Below, piece after piece: positions 5,377 to 42,719 of a stretch of DNA of 42,719 nucleotides. The first letter of the stretch is position 1. Each line of letters opens with the position of its first letter. The notes under the pieces are model-generated. The model saw nothing but the letters and a program-made list of their open reading frames with translations. It made no database searches and was not told the origin of the DNA. Position numbers and translations under genes: made by a program. This stretch comes from a bacterium (lineage in GTDB: Bacteria > Verrucomicrobiota > Kiritimatiellia > RFP12 > UBA1067). Where the stretch lies: NCBI GenBank assembly GCA_963661055.1, contig CAVLAC010000001.1, forward strand, positions 1 through 42,719, written 5' to 3'.

Positions 5377-7460
5377 TAGTAGAGCCCTCCCGTCTGCAAT
5401 TTATCAATACGCCGCTCAGCCTCGACGGCTGCAGGGACATCGCTTGCCGCGACAAGTTCCAGAATGCGTTCCGCCTGCCGCTTGAGTCCGCGTCGCTCAT
5501 ATTCATCAGCGAGGCGAAAGGCGGCTTTCACAAAGACCGCGCGGGCTTCATCATCAAAGACGACTCCCGCGAGGCGATTGGAGCGGTAAGACAAAACCAC
5601 ATTCGTATAATATTCGTCGAGTGCCCCCTCGAGGCGCCCCATCTTCTCAAGCGTACGCGCCACTTTATAGGCGACAACGAGGCGGCGAGACGGAGGCAAC
5701 GCTTCGCCTTGCCCAATCATATGGTAAGTGAGAAGTGCTTCCTCATAGCGCGTCGGATTATCCGCGCCCATCGCGAAGAGAGCGTCCGCCTTCAGCATCC
5801 GTGCCGTCAAGCGGTCGGCGGCGGAATCTACCGAGGCCTCAAAAGCACGGTCAAGAACGAGAATTGCCTCCTCAAAACGCGCGAGGGCAATGAGCGCTTC
5901 GCCCTGCACGAGATACGCGGCAAAAGCATCCTTCGCCTTCGGGTAGTCATTGAGGCACTTGGTACTCAGTGTCACCGCATTCTCAAAAGCCCCACCCGCA
6001 TATGCCGCGCGAGAAGCCCAAATGAGAGCCGTAGCCGCCTCGGGATTCGGGGCAATGCTCGCGGCATATTCTTCAAAGAGTTTTGCCGCCTCGTGCCACC
6101 GCGCTTGGCCGTAGGCGTACTTGGCAAGCCAATGCTTCGCCTTATTGCGTGCTTCGGAATCTTTTGCCTGCAAAGCGAGTTCCTTCGCCTTGGCGAGCGC
6201 TTCCTCATCGCGGTTGAGCCCATAGAGGCAAAGAATATCAAGATATGCCATCTTATCCGCACGCGCAGGGTCTTCCTTGGCAAGTGCCGCGAAAAGTTTG
6301 CGCGCCTCGCCAAATTGGAAGGTGCGGTAGAGTTCGCGTCCGCGTGTTTCCATATCCTTGAGCTTCACGAGAACAGCGAGTTTCTTTCCAGCGGGGGTAT
6401 CGGGGTACTTAGAAAGGACAAGCCGATAGCGTTCCATTGATTCTTCGGCACGCCCTGCTTCCGCAAGCATATCGCCCTGAGCGAGAACGATTTGCGCCTG
6501 CTCAAGGGCATTCGTCGTACAACTTTCCGCCGCGCTAAAAGCGTCCATCGCCTCATCAACACGCCCCAACTTACGGAGCGCCCACGCACGCTCTTCCTGC
6601 ACCGCGCCATTCTTGGCAAGCGTCGGCCAAATCTCGAGGGCATCCCGATAAGCAGCAACCGCGTCTTCGTTACGGTCAGCCACCAATAAAGCATGGGCAT
6701 AGGCGAGGAAAGCGGGCTGGACATCATACCTATCGGGGTGGCGTTGCGCGGCAGTTCGGATTACCTTTTCCGCGTCACTTACCTTGTTGGTATCGGCAAG
6801 GTCGTGTACGGCGACCTGCAAAGCCAATTGATTTCGCGCAATTTCGAGCTTTACTTGCGGAATTAGGTTCGTAATTAGCGTATAATCATCCAATTGAAGT
6901 GCCGCCATTACCCGCGCAAATTCCTCGGTTTTGGGAGATTCGGCGAGGGCACGCCAAATGGCTTTCGCACGGTTGGTCTCGCCTTGTGCCGCGTAAATCT
7001 CGGCGGCGACGAGTTGCTCGGGAGTTCCGCCCTTCTCAAGTTCCAACTTTTCGGCTAGGGAATCGGCTTCCTTAATTTTGCCGCGCTCAAGGAGGAGTGC
7101 CGCCTGAAGAGCCCCCGCGCGGCACTTTTCTTCGGCGAACGCGAAGTCCGTTTTCGCCAAAAGAGCGATACATTCGTCCGTTTTGCCTAGTTTCGCGAGG
7201 GCGAAGGCACGATAGAAGACGAAGGAAGGCGTTGCCGCGTCGCCCCAGCCATCAATTTCCTTAATAATATCCTGCCAGCGCTGTTCATTCGCGTAGCTCT
7301 CAAGCGTGACGAGCCGCGCCTCATCCTGGGGCAACTCGCGCGCATGGGTTCGGGCAATGGACCAGAGTCCGTCTCGAAGTGCCGCGCGGGAAACGGGGGG
7401 CGTCCCCGCCGCGATCGCGGCAGTTGCGAGAAGAACGGAAGCTAGCAGTACCTTACGCAA
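5376..7460 (-). CDS. Secreted tetratricopeptide-repeat protein
   Basis: 694 aa. Signal peptide MRKVLLASVLLATAAIAAG, then Ala/Leu-rich TPR-like helical repeats throughout. 1-nt overlap with the exbB-like gene. Confidence 0.7.
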   Translation of the reverse strand: MRKVLLASVLLATAAIAAGTPPVSRAALRDGLWSIARTHARELPQDEARLVTLESYANEQRWQDIIKEIDGWGDAATPSFVFYRAFALAKLGKTDECIALLAKTDFAFAEEKCRAGALQAALLLERGKIKEADSLAEKLELEKGGTPEQLVAAEIYAAQGETNRAKAIWRALAESPKTEEFARVMAALQLDDYTLITNLIPQVKLEIARNQLALQVAVHDLADTNKVSDAEKVIRTAAQRHPDRYDVQPAFLAYAHALLVADRNEDAVAAYRDALEIWPTLAKNGAVQEERAWALRKLGRVDEAMDAFSAAESCTTNALEQAQIVLAQGDMLAEAGRAEESMERYRLVLSKYPDTPAGKKLAVLVKLKDMETRGRELYRTFQFGEARKLFAALAKEDPARADKMAYLDILCLYGLNRDEEALAKAKELALQAKDSEARNKAKHWLAKYAYGQARWHEAAKLFEEYAASIAPNPEAATALIWASRAAYAGGAFENAVTLSTKCLNDYPKAKDAFAAYLVQGEALIALARFEEAILVLDRAFEASVDSAADRLTARMLKADALFAMGADNPTRYEEALLTYHMIGQGEALPPSRRLVVAYKVARTLEKMGRLEGALDEYYTNVVLSYRSNRLAGVVFDDEARAVFVKAAFRLADEYERRGLKRQAERILELVAASDVPAAVEAERRIDKLQTGGLY

Positions 7461-18492: not shown

Positions 18493-20641
18493 GGACAACT
18501 TTCAAATCTTTTGGAGCGGGCCTGGCGGCAATGATCCAGCGCCAGGCATTTATGATGATGCCGGGCTTCTCGGCTCTAATGATAATTTGCCACCGATACC
18601 ATCCGTCGGCTTTCTCTAACGCCGAGGGTACCGCCTCACCCACCGTGAGCCCCTTTATCTTCCCGAGGCTCGCGGAATACATCGGCGCCCACGAAGCCAC
18701 CAGCGCGGCACTTTCGCTCTTCAAATTGATTGCCGCCAAATGACAGAACGGAGGAAAATATCCGTCTTTGCGTGCCTCCAGTTCTTGCCGCGCGAAGGTG
18801 GCGTAATCGCCGCGCGCGGCAGATACAATCGCCATTTCATCGGGTGCATACGCCTGAATAATCGCGTCGCCAGGTAGCGTGGCTCGCCCCGCCCGCCCCG
18901 AGACTTGCGCCAAGAGTTGGTACGTGCGCTCGGCGGCTCTGAAGTCAGGCATATTGAGTGAGCTATCGGCATTCAACACCCCGACCAGCGTCACATTCGG
19001 GAAGTCGAGCCCCTTCGCAATCATCTGAGTGCCAATGAGGATATCCGCTTCGTGGCGGCGAAACGCACCCAAGATGTCGTCATGAGAGTTCTTGCGAGAG
19101 GTCGAGTCCGCGTCCATTCGCAAGATTCGCGCCTGCTTGAAACAGACCTTCAAGGCTTGTTCCGCCCGCTGGGTGCCCACGCCTTTATAGGTGAGGGCAG
19201 GCGAGTGGCACTTCGGACACTCCCCCGGCACGGGAATCCATCCGCCACAAATATGGCACCTCAGACACTGGTCGGCGCGATGGTAGGTATAGGGCAAATC
19301 GCACGCGGGGCAAGTCAGCACATACCCACAATTCTCACAAATGACACTACGGGAGTATCCGCGGCGGTTTAGGAAAAGGATAGTCTGCTCACCTGTCTTA
19401 AGCCGCGAATCGATGGCCTCCAGTAGGGTATGGGAAAAGATCTTGCCGCGATTCTGCGGCGTATTCATATCAACAATTCTTACGCAGGGTAGCGAGGCAT
19501 TCCCCGCCCGCGTCGACATTGTGGCGAGCGCATACTTTCCATTACGGGCATTAAGCCAACTCTCAAGCGATGGGGTCGCCGAGCCGAGAACCACCCGCGC
19601 CCCTTCCAAAGCGCCGCGCATTACCGCGACATCCCTCGCGTGGTAGCGCGGCAGTTCTTCCTGCTTATAGCTCGTCTCGTGTTCTTCGTCGACCACGATG
19701 AGCCCCAAGTTCTTAACCGGAGCAAATACCGCGCTTCGCGGACCCACCGCTACCCGTGCCGCGCCACTGCGAATTCTATGCCACTCATCATATCGCTCGC
19801 CGTCAGAGAGTGCCGAATGAAGTACCGCGACCTTGTCTCCGAAACGGGAAGCAAACCGCTGTACCGTTTGTGGGGTGAGCGAAATCTCAGGCACCATAAC
19901 AATAGCGCCGCGCCCCTTCTCTAGTTCTGCCGCGATGGCTTGTAGGTAAACTTCGGTCTTGCCCGAGCCCGTTATGCCGTGTAAGAGAATCGGACGCTTC
20001 TCGTCCGAAAGTATAAGGTTAAGCGCGGCACTTTGTTCGGCATTCAGCTTCAGGGGGTGGGTCGGCAGGATGCGTCCGCATTTAAAGGGATCGCGGCGTT
20101 TTTGGCGGGGCTCAACTGTGGCAAAGCCTTTCGCGGCAAGTGCTTTTAGGGAAGGTGTTGTCGTCTTTAGCTCTATACAAAGGGGCATCAACCAGCCTCC
20201 GCCGAGGCGAATAAGCTGTTCGTAGAGCCACTTTTGCCGCTCAGAAAGTTCGGCGGTATCCTTTTTAGGGATAGGGTCGACATAAAGGAACTCTTTGGGG
20301 CGTGCGTTGGGCTTTACGACGGCGGCAGGGATTGCCGCCTTAAGGACGCTTTCGAGGGGTGAGGCAGTATACGCGGCAATTCCCTTCACGAGCTTCAGAA
20401 GTGCCGCGCTAAAGAATGGGGTCTTATCGACTATCTCTTTAACCGCCTTAAGTTTCAGGTCTTTCGTTTCTGCCGCGCCCGCCTCTTCAGTGAGAATACT
20501 CAGGGCGTAGCCCCGCGCGGTGCGGTAACCGAAAGGCACAGAAAGGAGCTGACCAACCGCCAGCTCCTTTTCCAGTTCGACCGGTACTTTATAGGTAAAG
20601 AGCCGATCGAGTGCGAGATCTATCGCAACTTTTACGAACAC
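18464..20641 (-). CDS. priA: Primosomal protein N' (replication restart helicase PriA)
   Basis: 725 aa. Walker A GITGSGKTEVY, DEEHE box and the Cys-rich zinc insertion (CENCGYVLTCPACDLPYTYH...CHICG...CPKC). Confidence 0.92.
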   Translation of the reverse strand: MFVKVAIDLALDRLFTYKVPVELEKELAVGQLLSVPFGYRTARGYALSILTEEAGAAETKDLKLKAVKEIVDKTPFFSAALLKLVKGIAAYTASPLESVLKAAIPAAVVKPNARPKEFLYVDPIPKKDTAELSERQKWLYEQLIRLGGGWLMPLCIELKTTTPSLKALAAKGFATVEPRQKRRDPFKCGRILPTHPLKLNAEQSAALNLILSDEKRPILLHGITGSGKTEVYLQAIAAELEKGRGAIVMVPEISLTPQTVQRFASRFGDKVAVLHSALSDGERYDEWHRIRSGAARVAVGPRSAVFAPVKNLGLIVVDEEHETSYKQEELPRYHARDVAVMRGALEGARVVLGSATPSLESWLNARNGKYALATMSTRAGNASLPCVRIVDMNTPQNRGKIFSHTLLEAIDSRLKTGEQTILFLNRRGYSRSVICENCGYVLTCPACDLPYTYHRADQCLRCHICGGWIPVPGECPKCHSPALTYKGVGTQRAEQALKVCFKQARILRMDADSTSRKNSHDDILGAFRRHEADILIGTQMIAKGLDFPNVTLVGVLNADSSLNMPDFRAAERTYQLLAQVSGRAGRATLPGDAIIQAYAPDEMAIVSAARGDYATFARQELEARKDGYFPPFCHLAAINLKSESAALVASWAPMYSASLGKIKGLTVGEAVPSALEKADGWYRWQIIIRAEKPGIIINAWRWIIAARPAPKDLKVVLDMDARTLV

Positions 20642-40956: not shown

Positions 40957-41955
40957 TTAGAGCTTGTTGTTCGAGCCAAGAACCTTCACAATCTTGTGGA
41001 TGTAAAGCTTCTTCATCTCTTCGCGAGCCGGCCCGAGGTACTGACGCGGGTCGAACTGCTCGGGATGTTCCGCGAAGTGCTTGCGGATTGCCGCCGTCAT
41101 CGCGAGACGCGAGTCGCTGTCGATGTTAATCTTGCAAACCGCGCTCTTAGCGGCCTTACGAAGCTGCGCTTCAGGAATGCCAACGGCGTCCGGGAGCTTA
41201 CCACCATTCGCGTTGATGATGTCCACATATTCCTGCGGAACGCTCGACGAACCGTGAAGGACGATCGGGAAGCCCGGGAGCTTCTTCTCAACAGCCTTCA
41301 AAACATCAAAAGCGAGCGGCGGCGGGATGAGCTTGCCCGTCTTGGGATCGCGTGTGCACTGCTCGGGCTTGAACTTGTACGCACCGTGGCTCGTGCCAAT
41401 CGAAATCGCGAGCGAATCGCAACCCGTCTTCTGCGCGAACTCAATGACTTCCTCAGGCTTGGTGTAGTGCGACTCTTCCGAGGCGACTTCATCCTCAACA
41501 CCCGCGAGAACGCCGAGCTCCGCCTCAACCGTCACATCGTGCTTGTGAGCGTAGTTGACGACCTTCTTCGTGAGCTTGATGTTCTCTTCGAACGGAAGCG
41601 AACTGCCGTCAATCATAACCGAGCTGAAGCCCGTATCAATGCAGCTCTTGCAAGTCTCAAAGCTGTCACCGTGGTCGAGGTGAAGGACGATTTGGGGCTT
41701 CTTGCAGCCGAGTTCCTTAGCATACGCGACAGCACCCTCAGCCATATAGCGAAGAATCGTCGGGTTAGCATACTTACGCGCACCCTTCGAAACCTGCATA
41801 ATGACGGGAGACTTCGTCTCGACTGCCGCTTGAATGATCGCCTGCATCTGCTCCATCGTGTTGAAGTTGAACGCAGGGATCGCATAACCGCCCTTGACGG
41901 CCTTTGCGAACATCTTCTTGGTATTGACTAGACCAAGATCTTTGTAGCTGACCAT
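40957..41955 (-). CDS. fba: Class II fructose-1,6-bisphosphate aldolase
   Basis: 332 aa. Zn-binding region LHLDHG and a class II aldolase sequence throughout (ISIGTSHGAYKF, VLHGSSSVPQE). Confidence 0.92.
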   Translation of the reverse strand: MVSYKDLGLVNTKKMFAKAVKGGYAIPAFNFNTMEQMQAIIQAAVETKSPVIMQVSKGARKYANPTILRYMAEGAVAYAKELGCKKPQIVLHLDHGDSFETCKSCIDTGFSSVMIDGSSLPFEENIKLTKKVVNYAHKHDVTVEAELGVLAGVEDEVASEESHYTKPEEVIEFAQKTGCDSLAISIGTSHGAYKFKPEQCTRDPKTGKLIPPPLAFDVLKAVEKKLPGFPIVLHGSSSVPQEYVDIINANGGKLPDAVGIPEAQLRKAAKSAVCKINIDSDSRLAMTAAIRKHFAEHPEQFDPRQYLGPAREEMKKLYIHKIVKVLGSNNKL

Positions 41956-42000
41956 GTATAACTCCTTAGTATTTTACCCTTCTTCGGGGATTTGCTCAAG

Positions 42001-42029
42001 ATTATACCAAAAATAGCCCCACCATTCAA
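42001..42029 (-). promoter_or_regulatory. fba promoter (TTGAAT-17 nt-TGGTATAAT)
   Basis: The reverse complement is TTGAATGGTGGGGCTATTTTTGGTATAAT. The -10 lies 45 nt upstream of the ATG at 41955. An AAGGAG Shine-Dalgarno is present. Confidence 0.6.
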
Positions 42030-42103
42030 GCAGATTGTTCAGAAAGTGTGGTTTTCACCTTCTTTTGGTATTTTTTACCATCTTTCAGTTATTGTTTTAA
42101 CCG

Positions 42104-42135
42104 TGTAGAAATGTAGAGTTGTAGAATGGTAGGGC
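42104..42135. repeat. 8-bp tandem repeat x4 (TGTAGAAA / TGTAGAGT / TGTAGAAT / GGTAGGGC)
   Basis: Read directly from the sequence. It abuts an 8-bp GC hairpin GGCGGGCA-gtccct-TGCCCGCC at 42133-42154. Confidence 0.7.
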
Positions 42136-42180
42136 GGGCAGTCCCTTGCCCGCCGCGTATAAGAGGTTAACAATTCCACT

Positions 42181-42204
42181 CTTCAACTTCAACTTGAACT
42201 TCAA
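42181..42204. repeat. 6-bp tandem repeat x4 (CTTCAA CTTCAA CTTGAA CTTCAA)
   Basis: Read directly from the sequence. Confidence 0.8.
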
Positions 42205-42206
42205 CT

Positions 42207-42321
42207 CTCTCTGTGACTCTGTGCCTCTGTGTTTAAAACATACCCACACCCAAGCCCCGAAGGGGCTCTCTAAAATCTCTCTGCGAGCTCTGCGCCTCTG
42301 CGTGAGATAAACCCACCACCC
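42207..42321. repeat. Two ~45-nt related modules 70 bp apart (CTCTCTGYGASCTCTGYGCCTCTGYG...ACCCACMACCC)
   Basis: Module A is 42207-42251 and module B is 42277-42321. Between them lies the small hairpin AGCCCC-gaa-GGGGCT (42253-42267). Confidence 0.7.
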
Positions 42322-42371
42322 ATTTCTCATTTTAACTTTTTCAATCGCTGTTTTTTGCCGCGCTAAAAATA

Positions 42372-42441
42372 TTTCTAGGCTTTCTAGAACTTCTAGCTTC
42401 TCTAGCCTAGAACTTCTAGCCAAATCTAGCCCTTCTAGAAT
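42372..42441. repeat. Array of 8 CTAG-centred motifs (consensus TTCTAGMM) with ~9-bp period
   Basis: CTAG at 42375, 42384, 42393, 42402, 42407, 42416, 42426 and 42435. Followed by the AT-rich core CTTATATATATACCTTATAAG (42446-42466). Confidence 0.85.
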
Positions 42442-42480
42442 CGCCCTTATATATATACCTTATAAGCAACGCTTTTTTCA

Positions 42481-42508
42481 CCTCTAGAACGACTAGAAAA
42501 TCTAGCCC
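42481..42508. repeat. Second array of 3 CTAG-centred motifs with 9-bp period
   Basis: CTAG at 42484, 42493 and 42502. Two further copies lie at 42676 and 42684. Confidence 0.8.
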
Positions 42509-42719
42509 CATACCCCCACACTTTTGACCCCCAAAATCACCCCTCGCCGACCACCCCCAAAAACGCTCCAAAATCGTCCATTTTGAGACACCTCGAAAAT
42601 CTCGATTCTGAGAGGGGTTTAGGAGTGGGGGCTATCACCCTACACAAAAACTCTTCGGAGCCCGCTACGAGCCTCCTAGACCCCTAGAAACGCGTTTTTA
42701 GAAGCGACCTCCGCCGCAA

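Follow-up and report, generated by a model that had tools for sequence, protein, structure and literature searches.

Cyanobacterial genomes carry STRR sequences, arrays of short tandemly repeated heptamers that are dispersed over intergenic regions. Phased repeats also occur in parC of plasmid R1, where two blocks of 11-bp iterons flank the parMR promoter and are bound by the ribbon-helix-helix (RHH) protein ParR. The bacterial chromosomal origin (oriC) combines DnaA boxes with a DUE and is usually located next to dnaA/dnaN. REP sequences and BIMEs, which are found together with RAYT (TnpA-REP) in E. coli, Pseudomonas and Stenotrophomonas, are defined by a GC palindrome with a GTAG head, a high copy number and a mosaic setting (PMC2817692, PMC8266576). 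We compared these systems with a gene-free stretch (positions 41956-42719) at the end of a 42,719-bp DNA segment, hereafter called the window, which represents the entire contig C1 of a gut Kiritimatiellae MAG (1.88 Mb, 152 contigs). Because the window is the whole of C1, the stretch lies at a contig end, where it abuts the assembly break. G000 denotes this source genome, other G-numbers (G132, G131, G026, G032 etc.) relatives and C-numbers contigs.

With the anatomy, copy numbers and distribution of the repeats and the absence of origin features at hand, we favor with moderate confidence the view that the region is an fba-proximal spacer colonized by lineage-specific repeats, comprising a promoter, a REP/BIME mosaic and the left end of a multi-copy element. 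To judge from a BLAST coverage map of the genome against itself, the spacer is the fba-proximal part of a long intergenic stretch and is built in three layers, namely promoter and leader, REP/BIME mosaic and element start. Only positions 41956-42095 are single-copy non-coding DNA; the remainder of the region recurs elsewhere in the genome. The original prediction of more than 760 bp without a credible gene was borne out, as the ORFs in 41956-42719 reach at most 108 aa, run across repeats and have no Pfam matches. The idea of a hidden small gene was rejected, since Pfam returned no match and the copies of the region differ by 1-nt indels; tRNA genes were likewise not found. All repeat features listed for the region were recovered, including thirteen CTAG tetramers with the first at 42375 and the last at 42684, and the estimate of about 20 CTAG copies in the preceding 42 kb had to be corrected to 28.

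The last gene ahead of the repeats, fba (40957-41955, minus strand), encodes a class II fructose-bisphosphate aldolase in an ORF of 332 aa. Its homologues are 82-95% identical in 592 genomes, and the closest ones originate from rumen and gut Kiritimatiellae MAGs. Leader and promoter of the gene (41956-42095, minus strand) have no further genomic copies. A promoter scan predicted TTGAAT-17-TG-TATAAT at 42029->42001, followed by a short CCCC..GGGG leader hairpin at approx. 41977-41992 upstream of fba. This layout of promoter and leader hairpin also precedes fba in eleven Kiritimatiellae relatives. The repeat arrangement is not conserved there: the fba upstream spacers of these eleven relatives mostly measure 65-340 bp or consist of unrelated DNA, and the upstream genes differ. 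The fba-upstream segment matches G132:C11 at 94% identity as far as 42055, and in G131 just 95 bp are located upstream of fba.

Judged by its motifs and copy numbers, the second layer (42096-42321) is a REP/BIME-type mosaic. It contains a REP-type unit on the plus strand (42104-42154) with three TGTAGA-type 8-mers at 8-bp phase and a GGTAGG head (42104-42133), followed by a GC hairpin (42133-42154) whose stem GGCGGGCA/TGCCCGCC (42133-42140/42147-42154) encloses the loop GTCCCT. The unit is covered by repeat family D6 and the hairpin, which has approx. 68-70 BLAST copies genome-wide, many of them at contig ends. Further dispersed modules of the families D4, D5 and D8, with 8-37 genomic copies apiece, occupy 42181-42321 on the same strand, among them a CTTCAA-type 6-mer repeated four times (42181-42204) and two similar modules of approx. 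45 nt (42205-42250 and 42273-42321), each composed of three CTCTGYG-type 8-mers and a tail. A GTAG-preceded, GC-rich palindrome present in many intergenic copies was thus identified at 42128-42154. The resemblance of 42104-42154 to REP/BIME sequences of E. coli, Pseudomonas and Stenotrophomonas (PMC2817692, PMC8266576) extends beyond the palindrome. The approx. 70 intergenic copies are embedded among other short motifs, the repeat is species-specific and assembly-breaking, and the genome has candidate Y1-transposase-type genes, with three matches to Y1_Tnp (RAYT-type) on C51, C77 and C39 that barely exceed the Pfam cut-off. Unlike in REP/BIME elements, extra 8-bp-phased GTAG words stand ahead of the GTAG head, and GTAG/TGTA/TAGA are the best 8-bp-phased words of the genome. 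The CTAG arrays described below differ by the lack of a hairpin, and the element to the right is far bigger than a BIME and has fewer copies.

The suggestion that the repeats might border an element further to the right was essentially correct. Positions 42322-42719 (plus strand) are the left 398 bp of a non-coding, multi-copy element of approx. 0.9-1.2 kb, the rest of which is cut off in the C1 copy by the contig end. This segment matches C101:5596-5993 at 91% identity and the reverse strand of C67 at 76-81%, and an nhmmer search detected only these three copies in the genome. On C101, homologous DNA continues gene-free for more than 1 kb until REP-type repeats close that contig. At its very end, C1 shares approx. 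115 bases without mismatch with the C101 copy, which explains why the contig broke at this point. BLAST with the 398-bp segment in 60 relatives returned matches to CTAG arrays only, and detection of the copies in G132 and G131 required a sequence-only model (R1), which was built from the approx. 170-bp conserved core and searched across the genus genomes. R1 scored 150 bits at the C1 core and gave nine other matches in G000, G132, G131 and G026. There are two copies in G132, three in G131, these two being sister species, and a weak one in G026; the remaining 113 genus genomes gave no R1 match. Neither viral nor metagenome contigs contained an exact 20-mer of the core, and plasmid and phage collections returned no blastn match to the full C101 element.

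The copies share a block order of left box, phased-repeat slot, AT core, C-rich tracts and core. The left-end box TTTCTCATTTTAACTTTTTCAA (42323-42344, plus strand), written as TTTYTCATTTTAASTTT for the copies together, is the first conserved block and opens every copy of G000, G132 and G131 that includes the left end. The slot for phased repeats is filled with CTAG 9-mers in G000 and G132 and with CGCGGCAYTTT 11-mers in one G131 copy. The following AT core CCCTTATATATATACCTTATAAG (42444-42466) includes the 19-mer TATAAGGTATATATATAAG, which is restricted to this element family among 117 genus genomes. It has one orientation in C1, C101 and G131:C91 and the opposite one in C67, G132:C52 and G131:C21, and it is missing in G132:C23. 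An invertible switch between the arrays was rejected: only the AT module of approx. 20 bp differs in orientation, and its flanks do not fit an inversion. Equally, the AT core does not qualify as a promoter as it lacks the -7 T and a -35 region at proper spacing. A C-rich, G-poor tract on the plus strand (42506-42565) has CCCC(C)AAAA words and five C4-5 runs, and in all eight copies the C-rich CCCCAAAA tracts give the top strand a negative GC skew (-0.15 to -0.35). Next comes the conserved core of approx. 170 bp, which is shortened here by the contig end (42566-42719, plus strand) and holds the CTAG motifs at 42676 and 42684 as well as the R1 match. Beyond the core comes an extended inverted array, made up of copy-specific 7-8-mers (ACAGTAGG, ACAGTTGG, ACAATCGG) or of (CA)n, which folds into a hairpin of approx. 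150 nt on C101 (z = -4.2). An alternating-GC palindrome and then a 21-bp palindrome, AAAAAACTTGACAAGGTTTTT, are the last blocks. Defined by this block order, the approx. 1-kb gene-free element is a newly documented one.

To judge by their neighborhood, the element copies reside mostly at non-orthologous sites across the species. The genes flanking the eight copies in three species are housekeeping or unrelated genes and include fba, 3-dehydroquinate (DHQ) synthase, histidine kinase, ATPase_2/DUF234, aspS, an EF-G-like gene, r-protein genes and hsdM, the first three of which are the fba-side flank genes of the G000 copies. In G132, approx. 150 bp alone precede the DHQ synthase gene and the ATPase gene has a different neighbor. 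The C1 copy is nearer to its paralogue on C101 (91%) than to its probable positional orthologue G132:C23, which points to recent copying or gene conversion; the flanking genes of G132 and this genome are approx. 90-94% identical. The fba gene of G132 is located 264 bp from a contig start, and a complete element followed by aspS forms the end of another G132 contig. In this genome, aspS begins 44 bp into contig C58, which carries five plus-strand genes (approx. 5 kb) and then minus-strand genes again. Synteny with G132 therefore makes fba <- REP mosaic - element - aspS -> the likely order, although C58 could follow the C101 copy instead; under that order, approx. 0.7-0.8 kb would be absent after the window. 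For the 1-kb element, we found neither transposition intermediates nor target-site duplications nor a clean empty site, and for this reason its mobility is deduced from its distribution.

The element contains CTAG tetramers at 42375, 42384, 42393, 42402, 42407, 42416, 42426, 42435, 42484, 42493, 42502, 42676 and 42684. Eight units form a left array (42372-42442) with spacings of 9, 9, 9, 5, 9, 10 and 9 bp, mostly in the form TTCTAG-NNN. A right array comprises three units at 9 bp in the orientation CTAGAA-NNN (42481-42508). The arrangement CTAG-N5-CTAG occurs seven times in the window, always within the region, as compared to 0.23 +/- 0.45 times in shuffled sequences. Throughout the genome, 42 neighboring CTAG pairs are exactly 9 bp apart versus six at 8 bp and four at 10 bp. 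CTAG is the top 9-bp-phased word, yet it is among the rarest tetramers. At 0.71 per kb it is approx. 5-fold under-represented in the genome, which nonetheless has 63 phased units. The fixed part of the unit is KCTAGM, and the other positions are nearly free. The two arrays were also considered as arms of a single long hairpin enclosing the AT core; this was rejected, as only small local stems were predicted (z = -1.9).

CTAG at a fixed 9-bp phase with variable spacers was found at ten dispersed intergenic loci of this genome in all kinds of context. At both rRNA regions (C25 and C47), the arrays are located approx. 100-150 bp upstream of TTGCAT-17-TATAAT promoters, and one array adjoins a truncated four-helix-bundle gene on C2. 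Of 37 genomes sampled from the genus, 18 contain CTAG arrays, as do four genomes from other genera of the order. The reversed tetramer GATC, our control, did not form such arrays in genomes with CTAG arrays and was found as GATCNGWCN arrays in other families. Among the relatives, G006 has arrays in all spacers of a type I R-M operon, G009 has them around a four-helix-bundle gene, and in G030 they lie between ackA and pta. In G032, the dnaA-mnmG spacer holds an array of 48 units and 430 bp next to a pair of DnaA boxes. Genes of the four-helix-bundle (23S IVS protein) family were considered as drivers of the arrays and rejected: they occur in 49 of 61 relatives without relation to array counts, and the family is absent from this genome save for the remnant on C2. 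The left array has runs of 16-18 nt in common with arrays at other loci, and identical runs of 44, 25 and 23 nt recur in arrays from unrelated loci and from different species. In simulated phased arrays, the 95th percentile of common runs was 15 nt. Runs beyond this percentile thus indicate that the arrays are related by copying.

Comparable to the cyanobacterial STRR sequences, these are dispersed, intergenic and lineage-restricted arrays of short units. They differ in that the unit is 9 bp long, that its fixed part is only a palindromic 4-6-mer, that the units are non-identical and that a GATC-based twin exists in sister families. The searchable literature yielded no description of a repeat design based on a phased palindromic tetramer, and the CTAG/GATC phased arrays apparently constitute an undescribed family.

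Phased repeats on both sides of an AT-rich core had originally been considered to fit an iteron-type replication origin or a partition (centromere-like) site. Such a function, be it for the chromosome or for an integrated replicon to the right, would agree with the orientation of 38 of the 40 contig genes away from this end and with the consistently negative GC skew along C1, which places the origin somewhere rightward, and the giant CTAG array near dnaA in G032 adds to it. The region also shares with oriC a long non-coding stretch with an AT-rich core beside repeated short motifs, and with parC of R1 two blocks of phased repeats around an AT-rich, promoter-like core and a period of approximately one helical turn. 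We nevertheless consider an origin or partition site very unlikely and give it hardly any weight because DnaA boxes are absent, dnaA and its boxes are located elsewhere, the segment is multi-copy and not conserved, and no switch in skew is apparent along C1 or its probable continuation. The lack of convincing DnaA boxes, already conceded in the original prediction, was confirmed for TTATCCACA-type boxes in 41000-42719 with one mismatch allowed; one box of this type is present in the C101 copy. Unlike at oriC, dnaA lies on another contig, C98, which also has dnaN and TTATCAACA-type boxes in dense clusters (approx. 925-1010 and 5949/5963). These boxes comprise a group of at least seven and a pair that precedes dnaA, and boxes of this type are also found beside dnaA in G032. 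The CTAG/TATATATA segment recurs on C101 (91% identity) and, in diverged form, on C67, so that this genome would have the putative origin in triplicate. None of the eight copies from three species adjoins a rep, par or integrase gene, which argues against a plasmid-type iteron origin, and unlike at parC no parM/parR-like or other gene follows here. The orthologous G132 copy is without the parC-like arrangement, arrays alone occur at many unrelated loci, and relatives do not share the arrangement ahead of their fba genes. Finally, the probable next contig C58, whose adjacency is drawn from G132 synteny, returns to minus-strand genes with a skew <=0.

The regularity of the arrays raises the alternative, akin to the regulator or nucleoid-protein landing pad of the original prediction, that they, alone or together with the AT core, serve as a docking platform for a small dimeric DNA-binding protein on KCTAGM sites spaced by 9 bp. 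This might be an RHH or HTH protein or a reader of CTAG-specific methylation that polymerizes on its sites and shapes the DNA locally, for instance as an upstream activator or insulator close to strong promoters and to oriC. Retention of nothing but the palindrome and the phase, the accumulation of an otherwise under-represented tetramer, the positions ahead of the two rRNA promoters and close to the paired DnaA boxes of G032, GATC arrays of like design in other families of the order and the replacement by 11-bp CGCGGCAYTTT repeats in the same element slot of G131 are in line with docking. A candidate binding protein was not found, however, and arrays occur in every intergenic context, even within operons and between convergent genes. 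Moreover, half of the genus genomes are devoid of arrays, the array of the orthologous G132 copy differs and its AT core is missing, and the long identical runs between unrelated loci point to copying rather than to site-by-site selection. On balance, docking as the primary explanation is doubtful. Still less probable is that the 1-kb element encodes a non-coding RNA, with the approx. 170-nt core as structured RNA and the AT core as promoter or regulatory part. Conservation of the core in three species would be compatible with an RNA, as would a plus-strand fold somewhat better than that of shuffled sequences (z = -2.4, as compared to z = -0.6 for the minus strand), a CUC-UUCG-GAG hairpin and the variation between copies inside the first hairpin. 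Against it, the region and both paralogous contigs had no Rfam match apart from spurious matches of miRNA models to (GT)n, only one of 36 predicted pairs is compensatory in three sequences, and ten sequences do not yield a consensus structure. The UUCG hairpin is disrupted in G132:C23 and two G131 copies. None of the element copies contains a promoter of the house type (TGGTATAAT class, 575 sites genome-wide), and the AT core, devoid of the -7 T, is found in either orientation.

A spacer colonized by repeats thus remains the explanation that we prefer. The repeats may spread and homogenize as selfish or near-neutral DNA, with single-strand transposition, recombination or gene conversion as candidate routes. 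The REP mosaic would be DNA of the type spread by REP-associated Y1 transposases. The 9-bp CTAG arrays represent a separate, genus-wide dispersed intergenic family that is copied from locus to locus. Any cellular role, such as docking of a CTAG-binding protein or absorption of supercoils between divergent strong promoters, would be secondary. Some features go beyond this model. The strict 9-bp phase of CTAG with free spacers looks like selection for binding sites or DNA shape and is not obviously expected under neutral decay. Arrays upstream of both rRNA promoters and beside the DnaA boxes of G032 could have a real cis function, and conservation of core, left box and palindromes suggests constraint that a purely selfish element would not impose. 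It is conceivable, if rather unlikely, that the 1-kb element is a functional 'non-B-DNA hub' and that the arrays are operators of a putative array-binding protein across gut Kiritimatiellae, which would include the GATC arrays of sister families. Parts of this hub would be the phased CTAG bends or docking sites, a meltable AT core that is found in either orientation, a 150-nt cruciform, C-tracts prone to i-motif or G-quadruplex formation, and (GT)n and (CG)n sequences prone to Z-DNA. It could serve as a supercoil sink, an insulator or a protein-organized boundary beside highly expressed genes.

In summary, our analysis removes a false replication-origin call, and repeat islands at contig ends explain the fragmented MAGs of this lineage. 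It adds to the evidence that gut Kiritimatiellae carry dispersed arrays of a palindromic tetramer at 9-bp phase, which is CTAG in this genus but GATC in sister families. If the arrays or the element bind protein or shape DNA topology, they would point to a hitherto unrecognized layer of chromosome organization in an uncultured gut lineage.

The replication origin of this genome (G000) probably lies outside the window, on contig C98, at 875-1040 and 5859-5994. The first of these stretches, 3.4 kb downstream of dnaA-dnaN, holds a cluster of DnaA-type boxes with at least seven copies of TTATCAACA or TGTTGATAA within approx. 100 bp, and the second, immediately upstream of dnaA, carries the inverted box pair GTTATCTACA..TGTAGATAAC. 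In the related genome G032, the dnaA-mnmG spacer (locus L096, contig C30, 3938-5047) contains a series of consecutive repeat blocks, namely T/G-rich repeats, an AT-rich stretch bearing a DnaA-box pair, a CTAG array of 48 units spanning 430 bp and an additional tandem repeat of 22 bp.

G000 carries a second dispersed tandem repeat, which has a period of 22 bp, is based on ACCTAGGTCTTTT and is located at a contig end in every case (C2:16-60, C36:17473-17539, C56:165-253 and C75:10839-10883). In the sister species G131 (locus L113, contig C21), the slot for short phased repeats within the multi-copy non-coding element is occupied by tandem CGCGGCAYTTT 11-mers where G000 has CTAG units. This word is the complement of AAGTGCCGCG, a 10-mer over-represented in the window.

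The extended -10 box TGGTATAAT, found in the window at 42001-42009, within the fba promoter, is strongly conserved and common to promoters of the lineage, with many examples in G000 and both sister-species genomes (G131, G132); allowing at most one mismatch, 575 sites occur in 1.88 Mb. In each of the two rRNA operon upstream regions of G000 (C25:19352-19730 and C47:1-220), a CTAG array precedes a TTGCAT/TTGCGC-17-TATAAT promoter by approx. 100-150 bp, and both contigs break inside or adjoining the rRNA operon. On C2, a nine-unit CTAG array is followed after 270 bp by a truncated remnant of a four-helix-bundle (23S rRNA IVS protein) gene (MKNDKVSVLRQQTNWQELYFYQKTV..., 18621-18735); the intact family is missing from the G000 genome.

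In other families of the order (G041, G055 and G060), CTAG arrays are replaced by 9-bp-phased GATC arrays with the unit GATCNGWCN, as exemplified by loci L125 (1254-2189) and L126 (1501-2202). One GATC array in L126 adjoins a four-helix-bundle (23S IVS protein) gene.
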